From Malacoraja senta (taxonomy: Eukaryota), in assembly GCA_038087875.1 (NCBI GenBank), contig CM075988.1:15688001-15748000 (forward strand): a DNA stretch of 60,000 bases, given 5' to 3'. This document shows positions 20,680-59,666 of this stretch, piece after piece. The notes under the pieces are model-generated. The model saw nothing but the letters and a program-made list of their open reading frames with translations, did not search any database and was not told the DNA's origin. The stretch's first letter is position 1. Each line of letters begins with the position of its first letter. The position numbers and the translations under genes were made by a program.

Positions 20680-21300
20680 GTCTCCCGGTGCCGAGCCATG
20701 CAATGCCGGTGCCGCTTCGTCCATTGCAACAACCAAGACACTTCAGAGCACTTCATTGCCTGCAAGGGCTTTTCCGGTCGCCCTGCCCGTTGAAAAGAGT
20801 TGTCCAATGATCAATTCATGTGCAGAGCCTGGATTTATCCACCGTCTCTCTCTCTCTCTCTCTCGTCCTTACACTGGAAGGCCGTTGCATCACAAACACA
20901 CACACACTGCGATGTCCAGGCCGCGGCCTAACTTCCACCTGCCCGTCCCGACGGCGGGAGCCATTCCTCCAGGCGACCGTGGATGGAGACTCTTCTTCAG
21001 CACGAAAGGCGGTTGGTTTCTCTTCTTCAGCCGGAATGACAGAGAGAGGGGGAGGGGAGGGGAGGGGAGGGGGGCAGTGAGAGCGGGTCTCACAAACTCC
21101 CGTCGGCGAGAGCGGAGGAGCAGGCCCGCGGCGCCCCGTTACCCCGGCAACCTGGCCTGCGGTTTCCAGGCAAGAGTCTGAAGAAGGGTCTCGCCCCGAA
21201 ACGCCATCTATTCCTTTTCTCCAGAGATGCTGAGTTACTCCAGCACTCAGTGTTTATATTCGGTTTCCAGGCAACGCCGGCTTCCCGACCTCGGCGACGA
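20680..21300 (-). promoter_or_regulatory. CpG-island promoter of gene A with RFX X-boxes
   Basis: CpG-rich; GTTACCCCGGCAAC at 21138-21151 and GTTTCCAGGCAAC at 21263-21275; GGAGGG repeats. Confidence 0.7.
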
Positions 21301-22567: not shown

Positions 22568-23556
22568 TTATAATGGGGGATTTAATACTGTATCCAGCAC
22601 GGCATCACCAAACACCCCGAGATCTTTAATCTCCTTATGGTAATACTTGTGAAACATCTGTTCACTTGCCCATCCTGCGGCCGCGAGGATAAGGTCTATT
22701 GGCATGTCTGAATCCCTGGCCGCCGATGTTGATGCCACCCTGGTGGAATGAGATTTAAATTTATCAGTATCAATACCTGAATAAATCAACACCTGTTTCA
22801 ACCATCTTGAAATTGTCTGTTGATACTTTCTTATGAGGCTTTTTATGACTAATAAAAAATGCCAATTCTGTGCCTCTTAAGATTCTTGTTGTTTCTATGT
22901 AACATTTTACATATGTTACTACACATAGCCGTGGATCTGTAGGATATGCTAAAAACTCCAACTTACATCCCGTGAACCCAGGTCTACTTTGCTTCAGTAA
23001 ATCATAGACATAGAATGTAACAGCATTCGCCCCTACTTTCATTCTGTCAATTCTTAGTTTCTGTAATGTTTGAACTCTCTGAGCTGAAACTAATGCCATG
23101 AGCATAACCAATTTCATGGTGATTTTGGCTAATGACAGAGTTTCAATAGGATTCCAATCCCTCAGCAACATCAGTACATCTTTTACATTCCAAATTTCTG
23201 TATACCTAGGTCTAGGAGGATTGGAGTTGAAAATTCCTTTCATAAACCTACAGACCCAAGGATGTGATCCTATTGGATTTTGTTCTGATTCACTGCTTAA
23301 ATATGCAGAGTGCACTTCGTGCAGTATTGATTGCACTATAACTTAATTTTAATTCATAGTATAGAGTTGAAAGAAACTCTATTACATCTGAAATTTCTGC
23401 TGTGTTACATGCAATGTTCTTTCCTGAACAAAACACCTCCCATTTCTTTATATAGGAAATGTTCTGCTTCTGGGTACTATTCCTCCAGGCTGCTGTCATA
23501 ACATCCACCGTACGATCTGATAATCCTTTTCCAAGATATGGCCTTAGAATCTGCAA
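22568..23556 (-). pseudogene. DIRS tyrosine recombinase (frameshifted into three pieces)
   Basis: SAQRVQTL (Arg), HSTR, GWASEQMFHKYY motifs; N-terminal LSYSAINTARSAL. Confidence 0.9.
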
Positions 23557-23595
23557 ATCAACAAACCAATACGATCATGTAAAGGATGTGGTTCA

Positions 23596-23899
23596 TCAGT
23601 TACAGGGTGTACAAGTAGTTTTATCTGCTTTGGAATAATCATAAGGGTTTTTTTTGATCATTTTTAACACCAGTGGGTACCATAGCTGTGTAGGCCAATC
23701 TGGTACTACCAAAATCCCTGAGGCTGAGTCTTGTTTAATTTTCTGTATGCATCTGTTGATTAAACAAAATGGTGGAAATGCATACAGAAACATACCACCC
23801 CAATGTAGCGAGAAAGCATCCACCGCAACTGCCCCAGGATCAGGTTCCCATGACACATACTTAGGCAATTGGTGGTTCAATCTTGATGTAAACAAATCA
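23596..23899 (-). pseudogene. DIRS adenine-methyltransferase-like domain fragment
   Basis: DLFTSRLNHQLPKYVSW...AVDAFSLHW...YAFPPF...LVVPDWPTQLWYP. Confidence 0.85.
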
Positions 23900-24711
23900 C
23901 AATTGCCATAATTGACTCATCCATCCATCACCCGGCGAATTGTGACTTGCTAACAGTTCCAGCAGTGAATAACTTAATATGGGGTTATTTGAGCATTGGT
24001 TTACGCTCACAAGAATTGAAATTACAACGAGTGCTGAAATTACTGGGGTCAGGCATTACGGCGTTTGCCAGGGGATTGGATGATGATTTCATATCAGATT
24101 CACAACAAGATGCCTTAGCACTCATGTGTAGTGCGCACTTTGAAATAAATTGTATTCGTAAAAATGCAATAAGACCAAATATTCATCCTAAGTATGCAAG
24201 GCTCTGCAAACCATCCAACATACAAATGCCTAATCTGCTGTTTGGAGAAAATCTAGCAAAGAAACTAAAGGACTTGAATGAAGAGTCAAAAACCATGAGT
24301 GGTATGATGATGAAACCACCGATGCTGAGCAGAGCGGTGCGAAGGCAGTATCCCTACAGGCGGAATGCTGGTGCTGGAGAAGGAACAAGCCGATCTTTCT
24401 CGTATAAACGTTGGCGTGCTGCACCGGGGATACGTGGAGGTTCCAATATGCCTACCAGAAGGGGACAACAATTGCCGGTAGCAAACCCCGAGGTAGGGGG
24501 TCCTGGTCTGGTAAGAAATACAACAAATGTTTCACATTCACAAATAGGGGGAAGGTTACGATTCTTCCTAAAAGAATGGCAGTTAATAACAAATGATTCA
24601 TTTATTCTAAGTAGCATTGTAGGATTCAAAATTGAGTTCTATACACACTTGGATCCTCCAATTCAGCTAAATTCAAGCTGGTCACGGATTTTCTCAAAGG
24701 AAGAGAATAAG
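23900..24711 (+). pseudogene. Inverted DIRS segment: Gag C-terminus plus start of the RT ORF
   Basis: ORF 23947..24720 contains DALALMCSAHFEINCIRKNAIRP and IGGRLRFFLKEWQLITNDSFILSSIVGFKIEF; opposite strand to the rest of the element. Confidence 0.85.
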
Positions 24712-24806
24712 TTGATGTAAACAAATCAATCTCTGGCATTCCAAATTGTGTTACAATTTGTGTAAATATTTCCTGATTTAACATCCATTCTGTATTTTCA
24801 TTACAT

Positions 24807-25727
24807 TTACGTGATCTTTTGTCTGCAATTTACGTGATCTTTTGTCTGATGGGAGAGTAGATAATTTATAGTCATTGCTATTTCCTCTCTCAAAGGTTCC
24901 CCTTTTATTCTGGGAACAGCAAACTTTTGTGCTAGTCCAGGAACTTTCAGCTCTGATAATGGGCTCTCATCCTCATAGAAATCATCTTCTGAATCTAGAT
25001 GTTCCTCTTCAGGTTGGGTAACTTCTGGCTCCCCTGTTTCAGGTAAGTCTATGCCAGATTCCCCCTGCGCAAGCTCTCTTGTAGGCCCACGGATAGGCAG
25101 CCCTGTCCCAGTTGCTGCTGGCGCTGGCTCAACTCTAGGCCAACGCTTCATAATTTTTTCTTTTGAAATTGTCGGTGCTGGCACATATGTACGTTTGTAC
25201 TGTCTTTGTTCAGACATTTCTGGCACTGGCTCTCCTGTAGGCCAGCACATATATTGCCTTTTTGCGGGCATTTCTGGCACTGGCTCTCCTGTAGGCCAAC
25301 CACTGTAATAGCTTCGCACAGTCATTTCTGATGGCTCTCCTGTAGGCCACCCTTGTGCCTGTCCCATCCAAGGCACACCCTGTGCTGTATCCTCCATTGG
25401 CCAACACCGACCTAAATCCTCCTGTGGGGGTTCTTTGTAAATCATTTTCCCCATCAGGAGCTCTAAGCTAGCGACCCTTGCAGCCATAACATTTTCTGCT
25501 TCAGGAGGGTATACCTCCGGGTCTGACTCATCCGAGTCTACAGGTCGGGCCGACTTTTGTGCTGCCTTGCGCCCCGCCGCCGGCGGTTTAACGGCACATT
25601 CGACTGCAACGGGAGTTAATGGCTTCGATGCCACTGACTCCTCTGCCTGACGCCCGCTACCCTTAGAATCTGGGGTTTTACCTGCGGTGCGTCCCTGGCC
25701 TCTCCTTCCCCTACGCCCTTTTTCCAT
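24807..25727 (-). pseudogene. DIRS Gag-like ORF1 N-terminal part with 54-bp (WPTGEP) tandem repeats
   Basis: 306-aa ORF just inside the 5' ITR; repeats at 25215-25350. Confidence 0.8.
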
Positions 25728-27455
25728 TGTAAGTTGTGTGGACCTCTACCAACACGTCTGAGCGGGAAGAAAAGTGCCCTGTAAGTGAAAGTGAAACCAC
25801 TTACCTCCGATTTTTACTTTAACTTTGCTTTTTACTCACCGCCTGGAGGAGCTCCTGCTCCTCCACACACGGTCATGAACGCTATGCGTCTGATCGATAT
25901 GACGCGTGTGCGGCTGGACGGGGTCTTCTTCACGTAGTCACTCACGTGACTCCGAAGTAAAATTGTACAGAATAGTGTTAATTAAAGATCATTGAGCGGA
26001 GCCCTATGATCTTTGGTGTTAATGTGCAGGGATCACTGGTCAGCGCGGACTTGGTGAGCCGAAAGGTCTGTTTGCACGCTTTATCTCTAAACGAAACTTT
26101 AAAAAATCCTGAAAATTTCACGGGGATTCGGTATTTTTTCCAATTTCTTACTTCATATTCATTTTATTGGTATTGGGGATGCAAGATAATGACTAGACTG
26201 GCCATGTGGACGGGTTGTCATATGTGTCATATGTACAACAACAGAACATTTAAATTCTTACTAGCAGCAGCATGAGAAGCCTGTAAATACTATACACATA
26301 TTTTATCAAATATGTAATATATATGTAATATTTTCTGTTTTGGTAACGGATTCCTTTATTCTGAACCAACTGCTGATGAGAATGTGAGGGTCATTTTCTG
26401 TGCACTCTTAGTGTAACTCTCCCTCTCACCCATACAATATTCTCCAAGCACCACATCTCTATATAATGGTTCCTCTCATGAAATGCAGGAAACCACTAAA
26501 TGAGTCCGACAGCAATTGTGGAAAGGGAAATGGCATTAATATTTCAGGTCAAAGACCCTCTATCAAAAGCATGATGAAAACAGAAAGCAAGTTAGATTTA
26601 AGTTTTAGAGAGAGCGGAGAATATTTCTGATAGAGTTAGGCCAAGGTTGCCATGAGGATAAATTGCAGAGGTCATCCAGTTGATGGATTAGAGGAGGCAG
26701 ATGAGGCAGAGCATTCATTCATGTTCTATTGTCAGAGCTTGTGATATTTGCATTGTTTGTTGTGAAGATACTCTGTTTGTTCAATCTAATCTGATCTACT
26801 ATTGTATATATTTCCACTCTTTCCTCCGATATTGCCATAACCAACTATTTAAAATTCATAGAATAGTTTTCAACATGACACAGAGCAAAGAGAAAGCTAG
26901 TAAAATGGGTAATCTCTGCATAACAATTTGAATAGTTGCTATCAGTCACCAGATTTGAAAACAATCTCCTTCAATGTTTTAAATGGCTTGTTTCATCCGT
27001 TTTGAAAGGAGGCCAAATTATTTTTGTCCACAGTGATGAAATTAAAACTAAGTGAAATGTAAAATCAAGTTAGTACACATCATGTGTCCAATTCACACTC
27101 ACTCTCCACACTCACTAGCATATCTCACGTAAAAGAAATAGAGCCCAACAAACAACAATACAAAGTAGTATGATACACAATTATTCCTCCGATTCACTTT
27201 CATAGATGGTGGGTGCACATTTCTACAACCTGACTGGATGATGAATGAGAGAATCTGAAAAGGATCAAATAATTTGATAGTTTTGGCTACGTATAATAAT
27301 AAAAAACAAAAAACAAGACTTTCAAATCTAAAGGAATGTCCTAGATGGCATTACAGTTATCTTAGGTTTCAATTCTCATCAGTATTAAAAGCGAGAGTAA
27401 ACCTGGGTTACAAAATGTAAGATCACCCCCATTGTTAAATGTGAGTCTTTCCTTA

Positions 27456-28229: not shown

Positions 28230-29110
28230 AGAGGTAAATCACTGAAAACTAGCATTCATGTGCAAAAGGCAATTGACATGTTAGCCATTATTACAAGAGG
28301 ATTTGTCAATTAGAGTAAAAATGTCTCTCTATAATTGTAATGGATGATATTGGACCTGCTTGAGGGTTCCAGCATTTTCTGTTTTCAGTTCCGCTTTCCA
28401 GCATCTGCAGTGTTTTGATTTTCAAAATGGCCTCATTCAAATCATGTCTGGAACATTGTGTATAAACAGTGTTCTTACCTTAAAAGGATATAATTGGCTT
28501 TAAGGTATTGTAACAAAGATTTACCAGACTTGTACCTGGAATGTCAGGGTTGCTGTATGAGGAGAGATTGAATAGTTGACTTGTAATCCCCAAAGTTTAG
28601 GAGAATCGATCTCGTTGAAATGTTAAAAATTCCCTCTATAATGTGCCTGTCCCACTTAGGCAACTCTTTAGGCGACTGCCAGGGACTAATTTTAATGGAA
28701 TTCACCTATGACACCTAGCGACAACCTACGACAACACCCACGACAGCAAAAATTGTCACCAGTCGCCAAAAAATTTTCAACATGTGGAAAATTTTGTGGC
28801 AGTCACCTGTAGTCGCCCAAAAAATCACTTAAGTGGGACAGGCCCATAAGGAGGATCGTTCTCTTGGCTAAGGAGTATAAGAAATCAGGGTCACATTGGA
28901 TAAAGGGTAAGCTTATTACCCTGAGATAAGGAGAAATCGTTCACTAGGTAAATGGTGACTCACTGAAATTCTTTACTCTGGATTACTGTGAAGGATCAAT
29001 GACTGATAAACCATAGAGCTACAGATTTCTAGATATGAGGAAGGCAATCAAGGGATATGGAGAAAACTGGCTCAGGTAGAATATCAACCATGATTTTGAC
29101 AACTGGCAGA
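28230..29110 (+). mobile_element. Old, decayed CR1 3' fragment interrupted by a MITE
   Basis: atttaccagacttgtacctggaatgtcagggttgctgtatgaggagagattg resembles the CR1 RFTRLIPGM region. Confidence 0.6.
28642..28846. mobile_element. PIF/Harbinger-like MITE
   Basis: Same TIR family; TAA TSD at 28639-28641 and 28847-28849. Confidence 0.85.
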
Positions 29111-29655
29111 GTATGTTCCCAGGGCCTGTCCCACTTAGGCGATTTTTTAGGCAAGTACAAACGACTAGTTTGTCGCCACATGTTCGCCGGGAGTAGTCTC
29201 CTCAGTCGTGCAAAAAGTCGTAACGTCTTTCTGGTCGCCGCTAAATTTAAATTTTCAGCTTGACTTCTCCTGACGTAGGTGCTGTCGTAGGTTGTCGCTG
29301 TTTTTTCGGCGACCTGCTACAACTATGACAGTCACCTGTAGTCGCCCAAAAAATCACTTAAGTGGGACAGGCCCATAAGGAGGATCGTTCTCTTGGCTAA
29401 GGAGTATAAGAAATCAGGGTCACATTGGATAAAGGGTAAGCTTATTACCCTGAGATAAGGAGAAATCGTTCACTAGGTAAATGGTGACTCACTGAAATTC
29501 TTTACTCTGGATTACTGTGAAGGATCAATGACTGATAAACCATAGAGCTACAGATTTCTAGATATGAGGAAGGCAATCAAGGGATATGGAGAAAACTGGC
29601 TCAGGTAGAATATCAACCATGATTTTGACAACTGGCAGAGTATGTTCCCAGGGCC
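28800..29655. repeat. 327-bp direct duplication (28800-29126 = 29329-29655) with a chimeric MITE (29122-29375)
   Basis: Direct sequence identity at offset 529. Confidence 0.9.
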
Positions 29656-30319: not shown

Positions 30320-30780
30320 TACGGGATACGCGTGCGCATTGGGCAGGAGGTGACGTTCGGAAGATGGCGCCGCCAGGGAGAGGGTGCCGGTGGTGAGGAA
30401 AAGGCACCTTTAAATCCTATTCAGTTTCACACTCGGAAGATCGGGGATTCTGGCTGCTTTTTCGCGTGAAGCTCCGATTTGGGGTGATGTCCGAAGACAC
30501 AGCGAACGGAGTGCGGGTAAGTGAAGCACAAACTTTCTTCAGGGAATAAGCTGGCAAGGAAGGCCGGATGTCCCGCCCTGCAGCGTTGATTGGCCCCATG
30601 GCCGCCGCATCAGCCCTGGGCCAGCTTCTCCTCGGTGTGTGTGTGCTCACCGTCAGAGGTGCCCGCCCGGGAATGACCCTGACCTGGCCAGCCCCACACA
30701 CCCTTCCCTGCACACGCACACCGTCGCTTTCATCAAACATACATTTATGCCCTTACCACGTCCCGAACCTGTCGCAACCC
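30320..30780 (+). promoter_or_regulatory. HMBS housekeeping CpG-island promoter
   Basis: CpG-rich; NRF1-like cgcgtgcgca (~30329), CRE half-site tgacgt (~30351), YY1-like aagatggcg (30361). Confidence 0.75.
30487..30516 (+). CDS. HMBS: HMBS exon 1 ([10 protein letters not shown])
   Basis: ATG in CpG island, CGG|gtaagt, phase 0. Confidence 0.85.
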
Positions 30781-33700
30781 TCCACTAACATGTCCTTGTC
30801 TCTTGCCATTACCTTTCTCTCACACAAAACGATGGAGTAACAGCGGATCAGGCAGTGTCTCTGGCGAGAAGGAATTGGTGATGTGTTTAAGAAGGAACTG
30901 CAGATGCTGGAAAATCGAAGGTACACAAAAATGTTGGAGAAACTCAGCGGGTGCAGCAGCATCTATGGAGCGAGGGAGATAGGCAACGTTTCTGTTTGAA
31001 GAAGGGTCTCCAGATATGCTGCCAATCCCGCTGAGTTATTCCAGCATTTTGTGTCTACCTTCCTCTCTCATCACATTTTAAATGGTTATTTTAATTGCTG
31101 GTTAATTGGCCATAGTGTGAGTTGCGAGTAGTGTGTGGATGAATGGTAAGATCTGGAGGGGTGGGATTAGAGTGGGGGTGAAAATTTAGAAAAGTGATTC
31201 ATGTGGGGTGAACACTAATGGTTGGTTGATGGTCAGTGTGGATCCTGTGGTTTGAAGGGCCTGCTTCAGTATATCTCTATGACATATCCTTCAGGAGGCC
31301 CCATAAATGGAGAATACGCCCCAATCTCCATTTACGGGGAAAGTGTGGAGAGAGTGTCCAGCTTTAAGTTTCTGGGCACTCACATTTCAGAGGACCTCAC
31401 ATGGTCCACCAACACCGCTGCGCTGGTCAAGAAGGCACAGCAACGACTGTTCTTCCTGAGGACATTAAAAAAGACTGGTCTGCCCCAACAGCTGCTGACA
31501 ACATTCTACCGCTGCACCACAGAGAGCATATTAACGTATGGCATCTCTGTGTGGTATCTCAGCTGCACGGAGGCGGAGAGAAGAGCTCTTCAGCGCGTCA
31601 TCCACAGAGCGCAGAGGATCATTGGGACAGAGCTACCAGCCTTGGAGGGCATCTACCACACACGGTGCCTCATGAAGGCTGTCAGCATCCATAAGGACTC
31701 ATCACACCCTTGTAACGGTCTGTTTGAACTACTTCCCTCCGGCAGACGTTACAAGGCCTTCTACGCCCGAACCTCCAGACTCAGAAACAGCTTTATTCCA
31801 AGAGCTATAGCGGCTCTGAACCGGCCCTGCTGAGTGCCCCCCCACCCACCCCCGCCCCCTGGACAGTCTCCCTCGGATGGTCACTCAGCTTGCTTGCTTA
31901 TTTATTTATTTTACTTTTCTTGTACATCGGTGGAGCTGCATACTAAATCTCGTTGCACTGACGTGCAATGACAATAAAAGATATTATTATTATTATTATC
32001 ATTCTGTTGCCCTTTTCTCCTTGCACTGCCACCCTTTTCCTGCAGACTTTCTCTCTGGCCACCTGGCACTATCCCACCTCTTAATGGCACGTCCTTTCTT
32101 TCGAAATCCCCTAATGGTTTTGCCACTCTCCTTCATTACTAATCCCTCTTATTTATATATCTTCCCCTGACCCCATTGCTGTTGCTGTTGGGTTACTCCT
32201 TCCATTACTTGCAAGGTATAACCATGGGTGTCTTTACTGGTTTTTTCCCATCTGACTCATTTCCCATCTATTAATTTACTGGTCTTTTCCCATCTGACTC
32301 ATTTTTTTCAGATCAATTCCCACCAATCCCACACATCAGTGGATGCCTATTCCTTTAATTGCATAAATGTCCTTTCTGGCACCTCCCCATTTGCCAAATA
32401 GCACCCTTCTTAACCCTAACTTTGACACCCACACCCCATACTAACTTGTTCTCCCCATGCTGTTCCTATCCAGTTGCATATCCTTGCATCTGTTGTAATG
32501 GCAAAGACACATTTTGCTCCCAAAACCCGCTGCCAAATCATGACTTGTTCTTTGCCACATCCAGTACCTTTACCAATCCCACAGGGTTTATTTCATTCTT
32601 CATTGAGAATAAGGTGTTTTGTTGCAATTGGACATGGAATGTGCTCGCAAGTGTTTTTGAGTGCCTTGTCGTTATGATAAGAATAAATGTCTCTTTTATT
32701 CAAATGTTCTTCATAATAAGGGTAACTTTTTATAATGCTACACATTTCAGGTATATGAAACCTTTGCTCATAAATAACTCCTTGTGGGGACTACACAAAG
32801 TCATTATACTTGATACATTTTTGTTTTTTCAAAGATAAGATGATTGATTGCCTCCCTCCAACCATACCCCTGCCTCCTATCACAGTCACTATGTCGTGTA
32901 TGGTGTTTTGTGGAAGAATTATCTTTTGAGCCACTTGGGCCGAAGAGCCATCTGAGTCACTGTAGGAGGAGGTTCTTTTGCATGGATAAATGTACCAGCT
33001 TTGCAAGAACTTTCTGGCACTGAACTTTCTGATCTACTGAGACTTTGGTGAAAGATAGGTGCAGAAGATGTCAGCGAATGTCTGGGTAAGCTAATGCTTG
33101 GCATAGAGTTCAAGTAGAGGAACATTATTCTATTTGTGTTTAAAGACTGGAATAGTATCTTTGTATAAGATTGAAGAATGAGCTCCATGTATTTTATCCT
33201 GGCTCATGGATGTTGAGCACCATACTTTAAAGTTTTTTAATTCCACATTTCCTCCATTAAAATGTGGAGAAGATTTTTTCCTGTAAATTGTTAGATCTTT
33301 TCAAATCTAGTTAGAAATTTCTGGAAATCATATTATTTTTAATTCTTGCATTTGATCATCCAGAAGCTAAGTATCAGAATGAGTCACCAATACTTTGTCA
33401 TTGTGATGAGTTCATTTCGCAGACAATTGAGAAAGTCATCTTTGAAAGAAGGCAAGAATTGTGACTATATATGTTCAGTAATAGGTTATAGTAGAAAGGA
33501 AAGGAGGAGCTGAGAGAAATGAAAGATAAATCTTTGCAAACACATCTTATTATTGAAGTATTTCCCTCAAAAAATTGTAAAACTAGGGCATATCAATTCA
33601 AGTAATTGGAAAAAGGATTTGAGGGTATTTGAGCTCATGCTCAAAGTGGTGGGTATATTTGCAACCTACTACTTGAAAGGATAAAATCACAATGGTTAGG

Positions 33701-36700
33701 ATGTACTTTTATGTGTACTTAAAATGGTGTAACCCAAAGGACCAAAGACCTGGAGCTAGAAAATGGGAATAAGATGAACAGATTTTGGCTTTCTGAAAAA
33801 AGCTCGGTTGGATTTTAAGCTAAATAAGGAGAAAGAATGGGACATGCATGGTGAAGATGTGTCAGTACAAATCAATATTAACATCACAGAAAGAAAAGAA
33901 CAAGCATGTGCTGAGTATATTTTATTTTTACACAAGGTGGTGGTTTCTTGAACGTACTGCTGTGGGTGGTGGTGGAGGCAGATACGATAGTGGCATTTTA
34001 GCAGAGGTCATTAGGCATTTTGCATACATGCAGGGATATGGATTACGTGCAGGCAGAGAAGATTAGTTGAACTTAGTATCATATGCGGCAAAGACATTGT
34101 GGGCAGAAGGGCCTGTTCCTGTGCTATACTGTTCTATGATTCTATGTTCTCTGTGGTAATAGTGTGTTTGTTAGTTTTGAAGATGCTATTACCACATAAA
34201 AAGACTTGTATTTACATAGCAGAACGCACAAGTTTCTTGGTGCGTTACTGCAATCAAATGTACGCTTTCGAATCCTAATTGCTCTTGCAAAATAGCAAAA
34301 TGTAGCATGTAATTTATGTCCTGCAGGCTTCCACAAACATCACTGTGATAGGAACTGGATATTTGCCATGCTGAAGTATATTGAGTAGAAAAAATGGTCA
34401 TCTTACTAAGGACTCATCTGGTCTTCAAATAATGTTGAAGGATCTTTTCTGTTTACCGGAGAGGGCACAAAGTCAATTGTTTTAATAGATCTTCCTAAAC
34501 AAGGAGCCACTAACAGAGGAGCGTTGAAGTTTTAAAAATGAATAGATGGTAAATAGGGCAGATTGTTTCATCCAATTGGCAACACCTGAAATTTTTTTCA
34601 CATTTTATTGATAATAAGTCGAAAGGAGAAGAGAAAATTTGTTATAGAAGCACAAAATATTTTATAAATCTCTTCTTATTACACTAATCACCCTCTCTAT
34701 CACCAATATACCATAGCTGAGCATATGCTATCTTTATAATGTGCTGCAACAATTTGCCAAGACTGCTTCAAGAGCACCCCACATGTAAGACCTACAAGAA
34801 TAAGGGGAGCACGTGCATAAGAAGTCTGCCTTTCAAGTGGCGTGCCATTCTGAGTTGGAAATATTTTGCTGTTCCCTCAATGTTGCTGGGTCTGTGTACT
34901 GGAATGTTCCTACCTAATAACAATATCAGGACACCTTTGCCACACTGTAATGGTTCACAAATGCAGTTCACCACTATGTAAGGGTTATAATGGACAGGTA
35001 ACTTTACCAGCAATCTCCACACCCTGCAAGTGAATGACACACCTCTTTGAAGCAGGAGGAAATAGAGCTATGAGCATAACTACAAAGTGAAATTGACACA
35101 ATGAACTGAATAGTTCTTTTTTGCCATTAATACTGAAGTTCTTTTGACATTCTTTATTAACAGTGGATTACATATAGATTATAGTCGACTGTAGTGGTGC
35201 ATGGTGCAATGCCATAATCTGCAATGCTACCTTGCTAGTGGCTTTAAACAAGGAATGAACCCTGGGTGAAATAAGGAAAAACAATCTCACTTTGTTCAGT
35301 ATCAAATTATCTTTTTATTTGTACTTGAACAAAAATAAAGTCTCAGTTTAATGCCCGATCCAAAAGGACTAACCCAGCGTCTGTGTTCCAATCTGGAATA
35401 GAGTTCAAACCCACATAATATGGCCCAACCAACAAATAGAAGAAAGGGTGAGAAGTACTTCACAAAGCAGCAGATAGAGGCAACAGAGTTCTTGATGGGG
35501 GAAAGAGTCAAGCAAGTGACAGGGAGATACTGCTGTGGTTTTGGGCTGGGAATGGGGTAAGTGTTTGGCCTCGTGTGTTTACTGGAACGTGGGCTAGATG
35601 GGGCATGCAGTATCTCTATATTGTACTGGGGTCCTGACCCGAAACGTCACATATCCATATTCTCCAGAGATGCTGCCCGACTTGTTGAGTTACTACAGCC
35701 CTTTTGTGTCTTTTATTGTAAACCAGCAACTGCAGTTCCTTGTTTCTCCATCCCGATATTGTACTTACTGTGGGAGTCATTTACTGCAGATTGAACAGAG
35801 AAATAAGTGAAGATATATGTGGGCCACAAGGAATGGTAGTTTTAGTTAAAATGATGACATGCACATCCAGTCATCGAACAATATTGTGTAACAGTTCAGT
35901 GGTAAACATGCTTGAAAATACCGGAGTCCAAATACATTTTTGTGATTATTCAAACTCAATTGCTGACACGGATCCCGCCTCAGTACCTGCAATGGATTCG
36001 AAGAATCCTGAATGAGACAACAATTATTGACTGAGTAATGCACAGAGAAAATTCAATTCAATAATTACATTATGAAGAATATTTGCAGATTAGCAGCTAA
36101 AATTGTAGAAAGTTTTGTCTGATTGATATAGATTCATGATCCACATTATTTTCAGGTTTGTATAAAATAAATGTCTGTAGATGGTTGTGTTTCAGCACTA
36201 TTTGTTCTGAGTTTATACACTTCAAAATTCCCTACACAGTTGATAGTTTAAATTGTTTAAGCTAAAGATGTCTGAGGAAACTTTTTTATTTTTCTGTGAT
36301 TTGAAAGTGGGTATTTTTACTGTGTGTGGTGGCTGCCCATTGAACGTCCTTTCACATATTCACTCTCACAAATTATGTTTTGGTCTCCAGTAAGATTGTC
36401 ACATTTTGTTTTAGAACTCTGCTTCCCACAATGTGAAAGAGAATTCTCGAATTATCCGAGTTGGAACAAGAAAAAGCCAAGTAGGTTGTTTCTAACTATT
36501 TTTCAAAATTCACTGACTTAAAGTAAATGTGTTGAATTTTTTAAGTCTGGGGATATTTTTGTATGTTAGCTTCTCATTTTATTTTATTTCGTTAAAGGTT
36601 CTCAAAGTCTATTGGGCATGTTTTATAGTCTTGAGTATTTAGTTTTAAGTCATCATCTGTTTGCAGTGACAGTTTAACTGTGTAATCTGCACCAGTATCC

Positions 36701-39700
36701 TCGTTTGGGGGTGGGAGAGGGCTGTTCCCATTCCGCTGCCACTTATCCACATCTACAGAATTACATTGGTTTGTGGCTGAGTCATTGGAGGGAGAAAATT
36801 GTGGGAGATTTTAAGATAAAACCAAAGGGAGGGACGGGTGGGCTATTCAGATAAGTGTCTTTGTTCCGAGAATTCCTCCAACAGATTGCTTCGTGTTACT
36901 TATGGTGGAGTAGCATTTTAGGAAACAACTGTGGGTTTTAGCAATTATCTTTACAGCCATAGTCGTTCATTCTTGAAGGGTTAGACTTTAAGAATTTAGA
37001 CTTCAGGGTTCTGCTGTCATCAGATGCACGGCTCTGTCCCCACAAGCTGTGTTGCTGATGCACCTCCACAACCTGGATCCAAAATGATCCACCTGATGGT
37101 CTGCCTCATCTCAATCCTGCAGGTCTGTTTAATTTCAATGTAACAGGCTGGTTTCGAAAGCAACTGCACTAAATCAATGAAAAATATATATTCTCAAGGA
37201 TTATTATTGAGTATTCTTCTAGGAATTATTTCAGTATTCAAGACTTTCTTCCAGTCGATTGTAAGGAGTGGACGATTCCTGTAGGCAAATTACTTTAATG
37301 TGGTGTCGACTTTACTCACAAACTATTACATGGTCTTGATAGTGTCAAGGAAGTCCAAGGCGACTTGAGAGTAGACTCTACTGCACAGAATTAGCACTCC
37401 TTTTCTTTGGCCTGCTTCCTTCTGGCTTAATCTCATCATTCTAGAACATATAACTGGATGTATAGATCGAGCCTATCCTCTCCCCTGTTCCCCCACAACC
37501 CCTGGTTCTTGAAAACCCTACCAAAGGAAACTTTCTTCATATCTACCATAGTTAATTCTATAATCATTTATAAGTATCTGGTTTAGAATATGCTCCTTGT
37601 TGTCCACTCCCAAGCCATGTATGTTCAAGGAATCATAATTTTAGTTATGTGTCCTACTGGAAAGTACCTTGCAACTTTAATTCTTTGCACCAAAGTTGCG
37701 TTCTATCATTCATTTTTGTGAAATGGACTTTTGCAGCAAGGCCAGTAGTAATGTCCGTCCCAGTACAACCTAAAGGTAGTTGTGGTTTTTATGCTGCAAC
37801 TCAACCTGGGAGTTATTTATGGGATGATGTTTCTAAACGTTTATCAAACTTGTACAGAAATAGCTTGATCATAGTTAAATGGTCATTTATTGTGTTTTGG
37901 GTAGATTATTATCAAGCAGTTCAGGGGTTCCCAGCCTTTTTTAGTCCCATTTACCCGTGGCAACTTTAATAGCACATAACAATGTTATTTCACTTATTTA
38001 TTAACAACTAATGATGAACAGATACTGATATACCAGAGCCAAACACAGTCAGTCAATGAGAAAAAATATGTACAAATCCAGAATCAACAAATTTACCCCC
38101 TGGGTAGGCGAAATTTACCCTTTGGGGTAAATTTACCCCAGGTTGGGAACCCTTGAAGTAGTTAATATACTGAAGTGCCAATTAATGTGTTTGCGATCTC
38201 AAAACAAAAATGACTTTGTTAAAAGTTGAAATTCTGTTCATCTATAACAGATCCATTTATTGTAGCAAGATCTAGTTTTTCCCGTTAGTGTACACATTGT
38301 GTTTGAGATGAGCCATGTCTTATTTTGTTTTTCCCAGCTTGCTCAGACTCAGACTGGCAGTGTGGTGAACATGCTGAAAGAACAGTACCCACATGCACAA
38401 CTTGAAGTCGGTATGTACAAGTTGCTTGGAGATAAGATGATATGGAAAGACTACAAATTTACACTTGTTTATTAACAATTATATAGATAAATCTAGTCAG
38501 CCATTTGAGCAGGGTGCCAATGATCTTTAGGGAACATAAACTTGACAAGAGGCTTTATGTCAATTTTCTGCCCAGACTGCTGGCCTTATGATTCCATGGG
38601 CCTCAATTTTACAAACCAGCCCTTTTGTGTGGAACTCATTAAAATGCTTTGTGAAAATCAGTATAAATGATATCTAACTGCATTTCTTTCATCAAAATTC
38701 TCTTAAAGTATATTTATCAATATCTGTCTTAAAAGCTCCAAATGACTTCTAACCCCCCTGTCTTCAGAAAAGAGTTTAAGATTAATTGTATCTTTTAAAG
38801 AACAAAACAACTCCTTGCTAATTTTGCTGCCAAACAACCTATCTCCAATTTAAAAGGCTTTGGCTCAATAACTAGATATGAATACAATTGTGTATTTAGC
38901 TTGAGCTTGATTCAGCAGTCACTGTGATTATGTCTTATCTTTGCCCACCATCCCCCAATACCTATGATTAAATTCCAATGTAAATTTGGCAATTTACCCC
39001 GGATTAGTTGACATTCACAGGTGAGAGATCTACATTTCTGCAGCTTTCTGAAAATAGAAAGAAAATCCTAAATTTACTCCTGAAATGCATCAATGCCCGC
39101 TAGTTGTAGACTCACCAAGAGTTGGAAAGATAAATAAAGAGAGTAATTCTTCTATCATTTCTTGAAAACATCACTCCAAACGCACTGTAATTTTTTTAAT
39201 GCCGTACAGCATTTATTGGTGTAAAGACTCGTTGCAATGTAACCTTTGCCCAGGTATTAATCTGTGCTCCACTCGCACCAAGCCCAATTAATCTTTCTAT
39301 ACTAGGTGTAATCTAGCCAAGCTTTTATATGGCTGTAACATCATATTTTTCTCACGTTTTCCATAACTGTAGAAACTAAGATCATCTTTTCATTCCCTTA
39401 TCCAAATCCAAAGTTTTTTGTATTTATTTCACATTGCTTCTTTTAAATATTATTGGAGTTGATTAATATTATGATTGATAAGTGGGAATCTTAATTCTGA
39501 ATTTAATCTATTTCTCCTTTGTCCAAACCCCAGTTGAGGAAAGTGTTTCTTTTAATCTGCCAAATGGGAACTCTTGATCACCTTATTCGGGTGACTGTGC
39601 TCCTACCTGTATTCAAGGGAATACAAGACAGATTTATGTAATCTTTAATCGATCCACAATAAAGTCAATCCACAATATATCACTTAGACCAGAGCTTTAA

Positions 39701-42700: not shown

Positions 42701-45700
42701 CCTCCTAAGGATTGTGTTGTGATTTTTTTTTTTTAAACCTAGTTAATATTATAACATGAAATGCATCACAATCAAGTTGTTCATGGAAAAGTCCCATAAA
42801 CAACAATGTGATGACGCTGGATAAACGATCCAGATTAGTGTGGAAGACGGATAATGACCTGAAACGTCAGCTGTCTATTTCCTCCTGCAGATGTTGCCTG
42901 ATCCGCTGAGTTACTCCAGCAGATTGTTTTTATTTTGCTCAGTTGATTTAGTAGTGTTGAAGCCCAGAAACCTTTGATATAATACCACAGGGTCTTTTGA
43001 CTAAGAAGCCTGTTAGTCCTTTATAACATATACATCCAACAGTACAGCAACCCACTCTGCGTACTGTGGCTGTCTTAGATGTTGTGCACAGTCTCGAGTG
43101 GGAGGACATGTATATCCCGATTCGGTCTGGCTCTTTCTGCTATCCTGTTACCTTTTTATGATGTGTATTTCTTGCAAATATGATGATTGTGTGCCCATAT
43201 ATCTAAAATCTTTGTAATGTTAATCCACATTTTGCTCCTCCAATGTAGAGTTGATTTGGTAGTTCACTCCTTGAAAGATCTGCCAACAACACTCCCTCCT
43301 GGATTTACAGTTGGAGCCATCTGCAAGTGAGTAATCTTTGCGATTGTTCACTATGATTTATACCAGAATGAACCATATCCCTGCTCTCCAATTTAATGGT
43401 CTGGGAACGTTTGATGGTACAGTGGAGGAAGATTTTCTCTGCTCCCATTGCTCGTAAATTGCAATGAACATTTCAGTAGACAAAAATGGTGGAGAAACTC
43501 AGCGGGCGCGGCAGCATCTATGGAGCGAAGGAACTAGGCAATGTTTCGGTCCGAAACCCTTCTTCAGACTGATGTAGGGTGGGGGGGCGGGAAGACGAAA
43601 GGAAGAGGAGGAGCCAGAGGGCTGAGGGAGAGCTGAGAAGGGGAGGAGACAATAAGAGACAATAACCTCTACATCGGTGAGACCAAGCGTAGGCTTGGCG
43701 ATCGTTTCGCTCCGCTCGGTCCACAATACCCAACCTGATCTCCCGGTGGCTCAGCACTTCAACTCCCCCTCCCATTCCGAATCCGACCTTTCTGTCCTCG
43801 GCCTCCTCCATGGCCAGAGTGAGCACCATCGGAAATTGGAGGAGCAGCACCTCATATTTCGCTTGGGCAGTTTATACCCCAGCGGCATGAACATTGACTT
43901 CTCCAATTTCTGGTAGCCCTTATTGTCTCCTCCCCTTCTCAGCTCTCCCTCAGCCCTCTGGCTCCTCCTCTTCCTTTGTTCTTCCCGCCCCCCCACCCTA
44001 CATTAGTCTGAAGAAGGGTTTTGGCCTGAAACGTTGCCTATTTCCTTCGCTCCATAGATGCTGCCGCACCCGCTGAATTTCTCCAGCACTTTTGCCTACC
44101 ATCAATTTTCCAGCATCTGCAGTTCCTTCTTAAACATGAACATTTCAGTTCCTGCATGATGGGGGAAAAAAACTGATTGTTACAAAAACAGTGTGGGGAT
44201 CGTGACTTGTTTTTAATCTTGCCATCCATTTCTTCCCCACCACAATCACTACAACTTTCCTCTATGCTCCCCATTTCAATATGCATGACAAGTTTTGATT
44301 GCATTTTATCCAAGCAATGACATTCTGGGCTTCATTGGAGTGACTGTAGCCAGTTTGCAGAGATTGATACTGACTTACAACTGTAGTTGTCTCATTACAG
44401 GCGCGAAATTCCTTATGATGCTGTTGTTGTGCATCCAAACAATGTGGGAAAGACCCTGGACATGCTGGCAGAGAGGAGGTAAGGCAATGATCCAAGTACA
44501 AGGTTTACAAGTTTCAGGAGCATGGGGCAATCCTAGTTTCTGACACAATTTCCCTCGTCAAAAATTGGGCAGAAATGGAACCAGCCAGTATAAAAATTAG
44601 ACTGCATGTCCATTAAAAATAAAATACGGATTAACACACTAAGAGCAAGTTTACTCTTGCATTATCTATTTCAAAATACAACTAGATGCAAGAGAATCGT
44701 TCTGTGCTGTTTTGCAGAATGTGAAACATGATCAGTAATTCAGTGAGTTGGCACATTGTGCTCAGCCCAACTCCTGTGATCTCCACTTCGTCAGTGGGAC
44801 TTCTGTTTTATTATGGGGAAGTGAACAACATAGCAATAGGTAGCAAGGTGAAATGTAAAAGTGGCAGGCGGTCAAATCCAGGGCAAAAATCAAAAAGGGC
44901 CACTTTTCAACATAATTGTATAAGGGGTAAGAGTGTTGTAAAAACAAGCCTGAAGGCTTTGTGTCTCAATGCAAGGAGCATTCGTAATAAGGTGGATGAG
45001 TTGAATGTGCTGATAGCTATTAATTACTATGATATAGTTGGGATCACGGAGACATGGCTCCAGGGTAACCAAGGCTGGGAGCTGAACATCCAGGGATATT
45101 CAATATTCAGGAGGGATAGACAGAAAGGGAAAGGAGGTGGGGTAGCGTTGCTGGTTAGAGAGCAGATTAACGCAATAGAAAGGAAGGACATTAGCTTGGA
45201 GGATGTGGAATCGATATGGGTAGAGCTGCGAAACACTAAGGGGCAGAAAACGCTAGTGGGAGTTGTGTACAGGCCACCTAACAGTAGTAGTGGAGTTGGG
45301 GATGGCATCAAACAGGAAATTAGAAATGCGTGCAACAAAGGTAAAACAGTTATAATGGGTGACTTCAATCTACATATAGATTGGGTGAATCAAATTGGCA
45401 TGGGTGCTGAGGAAGAGGATTTATTGGAATGCATATGGGATAGTTTTCTAAACCAACATGTAGAGGAACCAATGAGAGAGCAGGCTATTCTTGATTGGGT
45501 ATTGAGTAATGAGGAAGGGTTAGTTAGCAGTCTTGTGAGTGGCCCCTTGGGCAAGATTGACCATAATATGGTTGAGTTCTTCATTAGGATGGAGAGTGAC
45601 ATTGTTAATTCAGAAACAAGGGTCCTGAACTTAAAGAAAGGTAACTTTGAGGGTATGAGAAGTGAATTGGCCAAGATAGACTGGCAATTGATTCTTAATG

Positions 45701-48700
45701 GGTTGACGGTAGATATGCAATGGAAGGCATTTAAAGACTGCATGGATGAAGTACAACAATTGTTCATCCCAGTTTGGCCAAAAAAAAAATCAGGGAAGGT
45801 AGTGCATCCATGGATAACAAGGGAAATCAGGGATAGTATCAAAACAAAAGATGAAGCATACAAATTAGCCAGAAAAAGCAGCCTATCAGAGGACTGGGAG
45901 AAATTCAGAGTCCAGCAGAGGAGGACAAAGGGCTTAATTAGGAAAGGGAAAATAGATTATGAAAGAAAACTCTCAGGGAACATAAAAACTGACTGCGAAA
46001 GCTTTTATAGATATGTGAAGAGAAAAAGATTAGTTAAAACAAATGTAGGTCCCTTGCAGTCAGAAACAGGTGAATTGATCATGGGGAACAAGGACATGGC
46101 AGACCAATTGAATAACTACTTTGGTTCTGTCTTCACTAAGGAAGACATAAATAATCTGCCGGAAATAGCAGGGGACCGGGGGTCAAATGAGATGGAGGAA
46201 CTGAGTGAAATCCAGGTTAGCGGGGAAGTGGTGTTAGGTAAATTGAATGGATTAAAGGCCGATAAATTCCCAGGGGCAGATAAGCTGCATCCCAGAGTAC
46301 TTAAGGAAGTAGCCCCAGAAATAGTGGATGCATTAGTGATAATTTTTCAAAACTCTTTAGATTCTGGAGTAGTTCCTGAGGATTGGAGGGTATCTAATGT
46401 AACCCCACTTTTTAAAAAGGGAGGGAGAGAGAAAACGGGGAATTACAGACCAGTTAGTCTAACGTCGGTAGTGGGGAAACTGCTAGAATCAGTTATTAAA
46501 GATGGGATAGCAGCACATTTGGAAAGTGGTGAGTTCATTGGACAAAGTCAGCATGGATTTATGAAAGGTAAATCATGTCTGACGAATCTTATAGAATTTT
46601 TCGAGGATGTAACTAGTAGAGTGGATAAGGGAGAACCAGTGGATGTGTTATATCTGGACATTCAGAAGGCTTTCGACAAGGTCCCACATAAGAGATTAGT
46701 ATACAAACTTAAAGCACACGGTATTGGGGATTCAGTATTGATGTGGATAGAGAACTGGCTGGCAGACAGGAAGCAAAGAGTAGGAGTAAACGGGTCCTTT
46801 TCACAATGGCAGGCAGTGACTAGTGGCGTACCGCAAGGCTCAGTGCTGGGACCCCAGCTATTTACGATATAAATGATTTGGACGAGGGAATTGAATGCAA
46901 CATCTCCAAGTTTGCGGATGACACGAATCTGGGGGGCAGTGTTAGCTGTGAGGAGGATGCTCGGAGGCTGCAAGGTGACTTGGATAGGCTGGGTGAGTGG
47001 GCAAATGCATGGCAGATGCATTATAATGTGGATAAATGTGAGGTTATCCACTTTGGTGGCAAAAACAGGAAAGTAGACGATTATCTGAATGGCGGCCGAT
47101 TAGGAAAAGGGGAGATGCAACGAGACCTGGGTGTCATGGTACACTAGTCATTAAAAGTAGGCATGCAGGTGCAGCAGGCAGTGAAGAAAGCGAATGGTAT
47201 GTTAGCATTAATAGCAAAAGGATTTGAGGATAGGAGCAGGGAGGTTCTACTGCAGTTGTACAGGGTCTTGGTGAGACCACACCTGGAATATTGCGTACAG
47301 TTTTGGTCTCCTAATCTGAGGAAAGACATTCTTGCCATTGAAGGAGTACAGAGAAGGTTCACCAGACTGATTCCTGGTATGTCAGGACTTTCATATGAAG
47401 AAAGACTGGATAGACTCGGTTTGTACTCGCTAGAATTTAGAAGATTGAGGGGGGATCTTATAGAAGCGTACAAAATTCTTAAGGGGTTGGACAGGCTAGA
47501 TGCAGGAAGATTGTTCCCGATGTTGGGGAAGTCCAGAACAAGGGGTCACAGTTTAAGGATAAGGGGGAAATCTTTTAGGACCGAGATGAGGAAAACATTT
47601 TTCACACAGAGAGTGGTGAATCTCTGGAATTCTCTGCCACAGAAGGTAGTTGAGGCCAGTTCATTGGCCATATTTAAGAGGGAGTTAGATGTGGCCCTTG
47701 TGGCTAAAGGGATCAGGGGGTATGGAGAGAAAGCAGGTACAGGATACTGAGTTGGATGATCAGCCATGATCATATCGAATGGCGGTGCAGGCTCGAAGGG
47801 CCGAATGGCCTACTCCTGCACCTATTTTCTATGTTTCTATGTAACATGATGTGTATTGAGTAAGCTGATGATTTGAAGCCTGATCATTCTTAATTTTTCT
47901 TCCTGCATTTGACATGCTTGGAGAAAGATGCAGCTCATTCATTCTCATTTGGCTTCCAGCGGAGATCGGAAGGAAAAAAAAAACCTTGTGATAATTGTGT
48001 TTAATGTTAGCATTAAAGGAGACAATTTTTTGTGCAATATTTTCACTTCTCTATTCGGTCCCTGCAGTGTGATCGGTACAAGTTCCTTGCGACGAGCAGC
48101 ACAGCTGAAAAGGCGATTTCCTCACCTGGAATTCAAAGATATTGTATCTTTTTATTTATTTTCGAAGCCATGTATGCAAATAGGTAGAATTTTAAAGTGC
48201 TACTTTAGCTCACCCACCAGGTATAGGGCTTGTATTAACTAGATGAACTTGTCCATGATGCAAGTTAGGTGTGCCAGTGACCTCATTGAGCAAAGCTTAC
48301 AAATCCCAGCATTTGAAAAGGAAAAGTAGTGATTAGCTTCATGCCGTGAAAGTTGTCCTGGAGCAAACTGCTCACCTTATTATAGATGAGCTCCTTGAGA
48401 CCAAGAGCACCCTGTGCAATGTTGTCAGCAACTAAACCAGTGCACCAACTGGGTTATTCTATGAGCCGGACAAAGGTACTCAGCAGGACTAACAACAAGT
48501 CAAAGGGCAACATGGCTCCGTGTGAGCCAACAACAATAACATAAAGAAAAGTAAAGGTTGCTATTTGATTAGTCTGCCTGAAGAATTGTGTATGTTGGGA
48601 GAATCAAACGGAATGAACAATGCCTCCATCCTTGTGGAGAGATGCTGCAGCATCCAAGGGGCACAATGATTTTGAGGTTGACTTAGTGATGACAGAATCG

Positions 48701-56300: not shown

Positions 56301-59199
56301 GTGACAATGAACTGGGCATATGTGCTGTCACATTCCATTTGAAAGATTCATTGAGTTATAAGAGGGTGAGGAATCAAGTGATTGTGCTAACATTAATGGG
56401 GAAATTGCAACTTAATCCTGTCAGTTTCCAATGAGTAGATTAATAGAGAACATAATAACAGTGGTGTTAAACCAGCATTCCATCTTATCCTGGTGGATTC
56501 CCAATGATGCATGTTTTCAGCATTTTTTAATTAAATTGTGCCTTCATATTTTTGCCTTTCAGTGAATGTGCTGTTGAGTCAAACTAGCATTGGGTTATGA
56601 CCTACAGGATCAACCCAGTACAACAGTTGGATAATTTCCAGCCAACAGATATATTTTTCATGTTCCTTACGGTGGATCTCTCCCTCTCTCTCGCACAGAA
56701 ACACCTATGCTCTTAAAGTATTCCTCTGAGACCTGTCACTCCATGGCTCTCTGCACAAAACTGATGTAAGTGGTGAGTTATCTCCAATGCAAATTTGAAT
56801 GTTGAAAACATTCTATAAGCAGTCGAGATAGTTTGACATTCACACAAATATTCTTTTTTTTTGCGATCCACAATTGCTTATTGAACGATGTAGGATTTTG
56901 CCTTACTGAAAACGGGTCTCCCTTCTCAAATATGATACAAAGTGCTCTGTCAAGCAGAGGCATAAATACTGATGTAGGACTGCACGCTCAGGACCTGAAT
57001 CCCCACAAATTATTCTTAAAACATATAAACATGATATTTTTTTAAATGGAAAAAAATCTTGCAAAAAGATTGACACATAATTCTATTGGTCTGGAACAGA
57101 TTTGAAGCAATGTAATGTTTACAGGGATGATTCTTTACTGTTATGCCCTTGATGCTGTAGATTCTGAAATGGGATAGCTATTATGAAATATTAACATATG
57201 GTGCTTACCCTTTGCAGTAATGACAAAATAAAACATAAGTAAAGAATTTACATTTGAAATGTTCTTTTATTTTTAAAATAAAGCCTGTGCTTGAAGTGGA
57301 GTAAATTCCAAACTAATCTGCAGAAACAATGATTCGGTAAGCAAAGAGTTAGTTCTGGGCTGAAGTTGCCCCATCAATGTGGACAGTGTTGGTAAAACCA
57401 CATTTACTTTCTCCTTTGGTTCAGGGCTGCAAATCATAACCTTTATAATGTTCTCTGCGACTACCATAGAATTTCATAAACACCCAACTCGCTCACCATT
57501 CTTAATGGGTAGTGTTTTATAGCTCAGGTTTCACTTGACATCAATGTGCACATTCCAGCAACCGTTAGCATAAAATTGTTTGGAAGGTAAACTGCTTGAT
57601 GTTCCTTCACACTGGCAGTGCATCCATTGCCACCCTTCTACCGCTCAGCATTACGATGGATACAATCACCTTGCCTAGTCTTGACTCGTTATTAGTTCGT
57701 ACAAAGGTATGTACAGTGTTCCTCACAGCACTAGAGAGTGCAGGTTACACAGTGAATGCCTGGAGCATAAACTGAATACAGAATATTATCCTGTTGGGGG
57801 AAAACAGTAGCTAGGAGTTTGCATTGATTTGAGTGGATGCATTTCTGGGGCTAATTATTGATCACCTGTAATTATGCCGTACAGTCACCTGTATGAATAA
57901 TAATTTTTCACAAAACATGGTTAGAACACTTGGCCATCAACTGCTCTGGGTTCCTGGTATTTTCCAGACTGAAGTCACTGGATGAGCTATAAGATCAGGT
58001 ATATATGGTGGTTAAATAGTTAATAGAAACAGATTAACTGTGGCCTATTTAACCAATGGAATAGCCATTAAGGGCCAACTGGCTCACAATGCCTATACAG
58101 AGATGGGGGTTTTTGTGGAGGATGCATGTAGAAAGTAGCTGCTGAATAATGCATCTCAGAAGAGAAACAAGTAAAATGTCAGTCAGGGAAGTTTGCTGTT
58201 ATACTCTTGATCCATATGTACTATTGTTGACAAGACCAGACCAGGGGATAAGTCACAAATCATCCTGATGTTAATTTTATGCAATCAGTCATATATTACA
58301 TGATTTGGATGGTTAGGTTGTTGGGGATAGTCACCACAAAGGACTGGTTACTCCCAAAACTGCCCGTGCTCTTGCCATGGTATATTATTGCCATATGAAA
58401 CGAGATAATGAAAAATTGTTTTACATGCTACCCAGTCAGATCATACTATACAAGTACAACAACTGGTGCAAAAAGAGAAAGAAAGCAGAGTGCAGGATAT
58501 GGTGTTATAGCTGCAGTGAAAGTGCAGATTTTTAAAAGTACAAGAACTGCAACGGGGATGATTGGGAATAATCCTTTGCACCTGGAAAGGATGTTCGAGA
58601 GTCGGGAAACGACAGGGAAGAAACTGTTCTTGAATCTGGTGATAAATGCTTTCAAACTTTTGTACCTTCTGCCCGACTGTAGAGCTGAGACCTAGGTCAA
58701 GGAGTTTGAAGATAAGTTTGGTTGGAATCATGGTGCTGAAGGCACAGCAGGAAGTATTAACTAAGCAGCTTAAGAATAGAGAGATTAGAACAATTCTAAA
58801 AGCTTTTGGTTGTGGCAACTGACAACACTGCCATTTTAGTTGAAACATTTTTTGTGAATGATTAAAGCATTAGAATGGGAGGGTCGTAGGCTAGTGGAGG
58901 TCTCAGAAAAGGTGGGCCAATGTGATGTAGGTATCTGAAAAATATAATGTTTAAGATTCACCAAGGAATCTTAATTGGAAAAAAAAATCATAATGACTCA
59001 GCCACCCATGTTCATTGAAAACTTCTATTTCAATTAAACATTGGGTGCAATTTACCGATTGCACCCAAACCAGAAACTACCTCATTAACCCGTCTTTCTT
59101 CTCCAGCAGGTTACACAAGCTTGACTGGTAATGATGATGGTTGCTGTGTCTTGTTTTAAAGCAGCAGGTCCCTTTGGGTGAGCTCTGTAACGGGGAGAT

Positions 59200-59381
59200 T
59201 CAATCTGCTGAGTAATCCACATTATTGCAATCCTGGTCGGGCTGTTTCCTTTTAGGCAACAGATTCCATCTCCACATTCCGATGAATGCAATCACAACAA
59301 GGCCGGCAGCAATCACAAGCACAATGCCAATAATTGGACCTGCCATGGTCATGCAGTTTTTCTTTTTGCTCTGGGTCAGAC
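59200..59381 (-). CDS. Terminal exon of an unidentified single-pass membrane protein (TM + short tail)
   Basis: Acceptor cctatttcgtag|, phase 1; GPIIGIVLVIAAGLVVIAFIGMW followed by basic RWNLLPKRK; ends NNVDYSAD*. Confidence 0.7.
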
Positions 59382-59666
59382 CTACGAAATAGGAATATAA
59401 CAATCTTTGGTCACAAACACAAAAATCCAATCTGGGTTAACAGACATAAATGTGATCTTTTCATTTGTTATGAATGGGATGTTCCCAGAACACCATCTAG
59501 TGGCTCAGAATAATGCCACTGTCTGCTGCTGACGTACAGCAGAAAAGTTTCTTGTGTATTGATACTCAAACCATATTAATGAGTATCTTAGAAAGAGCAA
59601 AGTTTAGTTTATATATTCAGCATGGAAACAGGCCATTCAACCCACTGAGTCCACGGTGACCATCGT

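Follow-up and report, generated by a model that had tools for sequence, protein, structure and literature searches.

Introduction

The erythroid promoter of human HMBS carries a CACCC box at about -100. The literature also gives it an NF-E2 site at -160 (PMC8018143 supplement) and, in man and mouse alike, GATA and CACC motifs (PMC3463598), a set resembling the motif cluster described here in the same gene of a skate. Human erythroid HMBS transcripts are given as exons 2-15 in PMC8541332, the erythroid exon 2 lying between exons 1 and 3, which is also the place of skate exon 2 (33068). In man the erythroid enzyme lacks 17 residues of the housekeeping form, whereas skate exon 2 instead brings its own ATG.

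Intronic control of a haem-synthesis gene has a precedent in ALAS2, whose intron-1 GATA1 enhancer raises erythroid expression, according to PMC4628764, and which resembles the skate case as an intronic GATA element. The ALAS2 enhancer has been proven by patient mutations, whereas the skate element is known from its motifs alone, has an NF-E2/AP-1 core and lies in another gene. For meRNAs from intragenic erythroid enhancers, Kowalczyk 2012 is said to be the reference. Enhancers of this kind, such as the alpha-globin enhancers in Nprl3, can act as alternative promoters and likewise sit inside a host intron beside a usable donor (PMC4054604 and PMC11933693). The meRNAs are described as non-coding, whereas the skate block considered below would be in frame, and no such transcript was present in two sequencing runs (X1 and X5). 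Outside subscription papers and bioRxiv supplements, our search found no publication dealing with an intron-3 element of HMBS or with HMBS promoters in chondrichthyans.

We analysed a 60,000-nt stretch of Malacoraja senta DNA (the window). We consider it probable, at roughly 0.6, that positions 36707-36950 are an intronic GATA1/NF-E2-type (erythroid-type) enhancer of skate HMBS, lying beside a pseudo-exon removed together with intron 3.

The HMBS gene of the window

HMBS was found intact from 30487 to 53319, with 14 coding exons encoding 364 residues. Its assignment to HMBS/porphobilinogen deaminase is supported by the intact frame, the catalytic residues and the families PF01379 and PF03900, both matched on the skate HMBS protein P0125 (Pfam). 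Human HMBS structures matched skate P0124 with an E value of 1e-162. The last HMBS exon of the window was 100% identical to skate proteins whose cluster contains RefSeq isoforms of Amblyraja, Leucoraja and Rhinoraja. The exons that bear on the present question are:

30487-30516, plus strand: coding part of HMBS exon 1, matching P0122 and P0124; the loose end of an X1 contig at 36414 is exon 1
36415-36480, plus strand: HMBS exon 3, containing GTRKSQ
38338-38410, plus strand: HMBS exon 4, from the gene model and the X1/X5 splice

Its GC-rich setting and the structure of the mammalian gene suggest that exon 1 is the housekeeping first exon. Just 3' of it, from 30568 onward, the sequence matches the start of P0123, a 383-aa Rhinoraja isoform, and may be a third first exon.

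As the preliminary description had stated, exon 3 encodes the residues known in man as R26 and S28. GTRKSQ aligns exactly to human HMBS, skate R29/S31 corresponding to human R26/S28. In PMC7959689 these residues bind the acetate of the substrate, and the R26C and R26H enzymes retain 0.3% and 0.2% of activity, respectively. An HMBS product without R26 would therefore be nearly dead. Human exon 3 contains an ATG whereas skate exon 3 does not. The exon 3 donor reads gtaggt, with a second GT 4 nt further on that might allow a frameshifting splice.

A second first exon and its upstream GATA/AP-1 cluster

Between exons 1 and 3, within intron 1, lies a second coding first exon, behind a group of GATA and AP-1 motifs:

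33068-33085, plus strand: coding part of exon 2, an alternative first exon of six codons that starts with an ATG of its own and ends at the donor TGG/gtaagc, in frame with exon 3
32670-33067, plus strand: GATA/AP-1 cluster 5' of exon 2, with WGATAR at 32675, 32833, 32877, 32919 and 33053, GATAA at 32985 and TGAGTCA at 32953

Exon 2 is spliced to exon 3. The N-termini of P0125 and P0135 map to 33068-33085, and the same type of product, six alternative residues joined to exon 3, is seen in P0125-P0127 (RefSeq, three skate species) and in P0135 (Logan-assembled from a public run). Counterparts of exon 2 are annotated in at least 12 of 18 chondrichthyan species (sharks, skates and rays) among the matches listed. 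Two different N-termini ahead of exon 3 are likewise found in lungfish, newts, axolotl, gar, sturgeon and teleosts. The exon-2 product retains the equivalents of R26/S28. Given its place between exons 1 and 3, exon 2 therefore occupies the position of the mammalian erythroid first exon, with the active site kept, and its own ATG makes up for the lack of one in skate exon 3. Position and motifs together suggest that it is the erythroid exon.

In the 400 bp upstream of exon 2 there was no CACCC box. An AP-1 core with four WGATAR sites in 250 bp arose in 25/300 shuffles of the gene, so the motifs of this cluster by themselves are modest evidence only. Judged by its position, the 32670-33067 region is likely the erythroid promoter. 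The mammalian promoter had been described at the outset as lying upstream of exon 3, and this region, before exon 2, is indeed its positional counterpart in the skate.

The motif cluster in intron 3

A second cluster begins 227 nt downstream of exon 3:

36707-36950: intron-3 motif cluster, with NF-E2/AP-1 at 36776, GATA at 36743, 36814, 36849 and 36945, CACCC at 36709 and 36836, and CCAAT at 36765 and 36784

The preliminary description had listed an NF-E2/AP-1 site, three WGATAR sites, two CACCC boxes and two CCAAT boxes within about 250 bp, and all were present, in a span of about 242 bp. The NF-E2/AP-1 site, GCTGAGTCA, occupies 36776-36784 and is one of only two such sites in 60 kb. WGATAR sites are found at 36814, 36849 and 36945, and a fourth GATAA core lies on the minus strand at 36743. 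The CACCC boxes read as GGGTG and the CCAAT boxes as ATTGG. Two elements of the set are imperfect: at the NF-E2 site a G precedes GC where the full Maf half-site, TGC, has T, and both CACCC boxes fail the 8-bp KLF1 consensus tested. From the NF-E2 site to the CACCC box is 60 nt.

The second GCTGAGTCA site of the window (58994-59002, minus strand) has CACCC and CCAAT nearby and no GATA. It sits just past the end of the open frame of the downstream gene.

Chance occurrence was assessed with 300 block-wise dinucleotide shuffles of the 23-kb HMBS gene. An NF-E2-type core with three WGATAR and two CACCC in 250 bp appeared in 0/300 under a rule drawn post hoc; a looser rule (core, two WGATAR and one CACCC) gave 13/300, and the core by itself 93/300. 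In the window as a whole WGATAR occurs 2.6 times, CACCC 1.6 times and CCAAT 2.9 times per kb. Measured by the two combined rules, the first of them post hoc, GATA and NF-E2/AP-1 motifs are clustered above chance, as would be expected of an enhancer of this class.

The region at 36707 had been called an erythroid-type promoter. Its GATA, NF-E2 and CACCC set is in keeping with this, with the Maf flank and KLF boxes imperfect, but its position is not: because it is downstream of exon 3, the cluster is not the positional counterpart of the mammalian promoter, which is the region before exon 2. The two skate clusters have one layout in common, the AP-1 core being flanked by GATAA at a distance of 34-35 nt on its 5' side and 32-37 nt on its 3' side:

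Intron-3 cluster: AP-1 core at 36778, GATAA 35 nt 5' and 37 nt 3' of it
Exon-2 cluster: AP-1 core at 32953, GATAA 34 nt 5' and 32 nt 3' of it

The window has 15 AP-1 cores, 4 of which have GATAA within 50 nt on both sides: the two just listed and a further pair that are copies of a single duplicated segment. The 3' flanks of the cores at 32953 and 36778 are alike (16/25 identical from the core on), with no wider homology. An origin of the two clusters by duplication was rejected, the local alignment score being reached by 54/490 random windows.

The standard NF-E2 gel-shift probe is, we presume, the human PBGD site. Compared by eye with the probe as printed in PMC4117634, the intron-3 site matched at 14/15 positions and the exon-2 AP-1 site at 13/15. 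The former match had suggested that the mammalian promoter might derive from the intron-3 cluster by relocation. This idea was set aside because the exon-2 site, with its own match to the probe, is in the expected place. A speculative view is that the first jawed vertebrates had such a pair of NF-E2/GATA modules, alike in layout, one on either side of exon 3.

The open block downstream of the cluster

Further into intron 3 is a short open segment:

37024-37122, plus strand: open 99-nt block, likely a pseudo-exon, with weak splice-like ends (cag/ to CAG/gtctgt)

The block is stop-free, bounded by cag and CAG/gt and in phase with exon 4, in agreement with the preliminary description; like intron 3, it is of phase 0. 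In-frame ATGs stand at 37024, 37084 and 37096, that at 37084 with an A at -3. Translation from 37084 had been said to give a hydrophobic leader, and this held: the ATG is in frame, and among 35 open ATG-to-donor leaders on the plus strand of the window its 13-residue leader ranks first in hydrophobicity. Its core reaches a Kyte-Doolittle 9-residue mean of 3.13, with no K or R ahead of the hydrophobic stretch. The GC content of the block is 54%, against 38% and 29% on its flanks, a level reached by 11/212 intron windows.

On an approximate matrix the block donor scored 1.6, and 4/14 real donors were weaker. Donors as strong occur 2.6 times per kb. Intron 3 holds 11 donors scoring at least 0, of which 9 are downstream of the NF-E2 site, and the distance from the last GATA site to the block donor is about 170 nt. 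The acceptor has 9/15 pyrimidines (real acceptors, 8-14). Across 21.7 kb of HMBS introns there were three in-frame, stop-free pseudo-exons with ends at least as good as those of the block, the block included.

The possibility that the block is a high-copy repeat was rejected on its single-copy depth in two relatives at 85% likeness and the lack of a second copy in the window. A Pfam scan of the block returned no family. The 47-aa open stretch around it, searched among longer proteins (cluster representatives only), gave two candidates, none at E <= 10.

Transcripts and proteins across intron 3

Four sequencing runs (X1, X5, X8 and X11) were aligned to 36380-38430. X1 and X5 are labelled as presumed RNA, X1 also as probable DNA. 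In X1 and X5 one contig each joins 36480 to 38338 over GT..AG, at depths of 126.5 and 31.1, so both runs hold spliced RNA and the splice of exon 3 to exon 4 was observed directly. The X1 contig continues upstream into exon 1; exon 2 was not among the matches listed. Neither run had a contig on the block, depth being zero from 36518 to 37897, and no joint at 37122 is therefore possible in X1 or X5. The splice seen there represents the main path only, since the runs are not known to be erythroid and contigs drop rare forms; an exon used in red cells alone would escape them. Five runs presumed to be RNA gave shares of 0.06-0.07; in X1 and X5, the two of them that were aligned, the share is accounted for by exons 3 and 4 together with a repeat:

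37938-38155: intron-3 element of high copy number whose ends are inverted; it has no bearing on the cluster and reaches depths of 10^3 to 10^5 in all four runs

We take this element to be MITE-like.

The block was found in none of the skate-cluster proteins among 15 of 18, including all seven named ones, three of which use exon 2. No representatives of skate-type clusters other than P0002 and P0003 were present among the matches listed. Among 243 vertebrate HMBS proteins, 0 had extra residues where exons 3 and 4 meet, and none contained a 6-mer of the block. GTRKS is missing in 24 of these 243, through exon skipping, downstream starts or unrelated N-termini, and RefSeq isoforms lacking this strand are found repeatedly, in rays, a shark, amphibians and fish. 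The isoforms with downstream starts are:

Starting in exon 4: P0143, P0150, P0168 and P0095
Starting in exon 5: P0004, P0136, P0160 and several teleosts

P0143 and P0150 (RefSeq; the rays Hemitrygon and Mobula) begin with a Met encoded in exon 4 and have no leader.

These results bear on the options that had been offered for the block. The junctions proposed for it, 37122-38338 and 36480-37024, were absent from the contigs of X1 and X5, runs not known to be erythroid, and 36480-38338 was used instead. A red-cell isoform with a leader and a 33-aa cassette exon both failed to appear in those contigs, in the 15 of 18 skate-cluster proteins and in the 243 HMBS proteins. The last option, a plain intronic enhancer, fits best.

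Divergence from two relatives

Contigs of the relatives X8 and X11 span 36380-37440. Per-bin depth shows 36725-37276 to be single-copy and without deletion in both, with about 22 inserted letters unplaced. In one relative the 5' part of the intron had 43 substitutions in 1044 positions against 39/536 in the middle part (4.1% vs 7.3%, p = 0.011), and in the second 48/1044 against 43/540 (4.6% vs 8.0%, p = 0.008), the less-diverged 5' stretch including exon 3 and the signal not being localised to the motifs. The two comparisons are not independent because most differences are common to both relatives. As a sign of conservation, the lower divergence of the 5' intron is weak. A metagenome scan for vertebrate exon-3 ends returned seven loci, none recognisably vertebrate.

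Other features of the window

Around HMBS the window holds several further features. Just 5' of the HMBS promoter, at about 28640-29650, a tandem duplication of about 530 bp was noted by eye, with twin AP-1 contexts at 28956 and 29485. Inside an HMBS intron, 44725-47750 is an insertion with long reverse-transcriptase-like frames, presumably LINE-like. Upstream, at 22568-25745, lies a second set of minus-strand frames that we assume to be retroelement-like. Probable exons of a divergent upstream gene were seen on the minus strand at about 20900-20980, 17560-17700 and 7030-7240; a Pfam scan of three frames of this gene gave no match. At 59080-59390, also on the minus strand, is an exon of a convergent gene; it encodes a clear transmembrane segment, and one of its frames stops at about 59200 while another is open beyond.

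Alternative explanations

An enhancer in intron 3 might also start a low-level spliced meRNA that runs from the 37122 donor to exon 4 and yields no functional protein. Mouse intragenic erythroid enhancers do so (PMC4054604 and PMC11933693), the donor follows the last GATA site by about 170 nt, and ray isoforms with an exon-4 start exist, of which a start in intron 3 could yield P0143 and P0150. Those isoforms, XP_072885945/6 and XP_062894575/6, are paired by accession, however, and would equally fit a frameshifting splice common to both first exons; the donor is one of nine (score at least 0) downstream of the NF-E2 site in intron 3, and in X1 and X5 the contigs splice across the block with none lying on it. 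We regard such a transcript as unlikely. That the cluster is nothing but chance or decayed short motifs without function seems quite unlikely. All three motif types are common in the window, the core alone turned up in nearly a third of the shuffles, and neither the Maf flank nor either KLF box is perfect; yet the combinations were reached in only 0/300 and 13/300, the layout is the same as that of the exon-2 cluster, the match to the standard NF-E2 probe is 14/15 and the 5' intron is less diverged.

Two further explanations give the block a coding role. The cluster could be a red-cell promoter and the block its coding first exon, a hydrophobic leader then replacing the GTRKS strand in a dead, membrane-targeted or regulatory HMBS isoform. 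The in-frame ATGs, the leader's first rank in hydropathy, the GC-rich composition, the lack of a deletion in two relatives and the promoter-like 60-nt spacing of NF-E2 to CACCC, near that of the human promoter, favour this explanation, which was the headline option of the preliminary description. That option assumed a sole erythroid-type start and is weakened because exon 2 (33068-33085) is another one upstream, already filling the role. The block is, moreover, unannotated in three skates whose annotation includes exon 2, is skipped in X1 and X5, and left no 6-mer in the 243 proteins; the ray isoforms without exon 3 carry no leader, and the product would lose R26/S28. We consider the leader isoform very unlikely, and its corollary, a dead membrane-targeted pseudo-enzyme beside the active exon-2 isoform in skate red cells, possibly tuning porphyrin flux, is equally improbable. 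Less credible still is that the block serves as a regulated cassette exon, whose 33 codons between exons 3 and 4 would inactivate the enzyme when included: the AG and GT ends, the stop-free 99 nt and phase 0 would allow it, but the ends are weak (9/15 pyrimidines; donor 1.6, with 4/14 real donors weaker), the gene has two further such pseudo-exons, 0/243 proteins have an insertion there, and X1 and X5 skip the block.

Proposed mechanism and significance

If the intron-3 cluster is an erythroid-type enhancer, as we favour, GATA1 together with an NF-E2/small-Maf or AP-1 dimer would bind it in red-cell precursors. The bound cluster would stimulate transcription from the exon-2 promoter, which lies 3.7 kb upstream, and perhaps also from the exon-1 promoter. 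The 99-nt block would be removed with intron 3, and translation would yield the usual active enzyme of 360 aa, exon 3 being retained.

New biology would follow only if the unlikely leader isoform were true, and the favoured reading would not surprise a specialist. The two-first-exon design of HMBS is older than the split of sharks and bony fish, as is already implicit in public annotation. If the enhancer reading is true, the result is a candidate red-cell enhancer in a cartilaginous-fish gene for haem synthesis, of use in comparative work on erythroid regulation.
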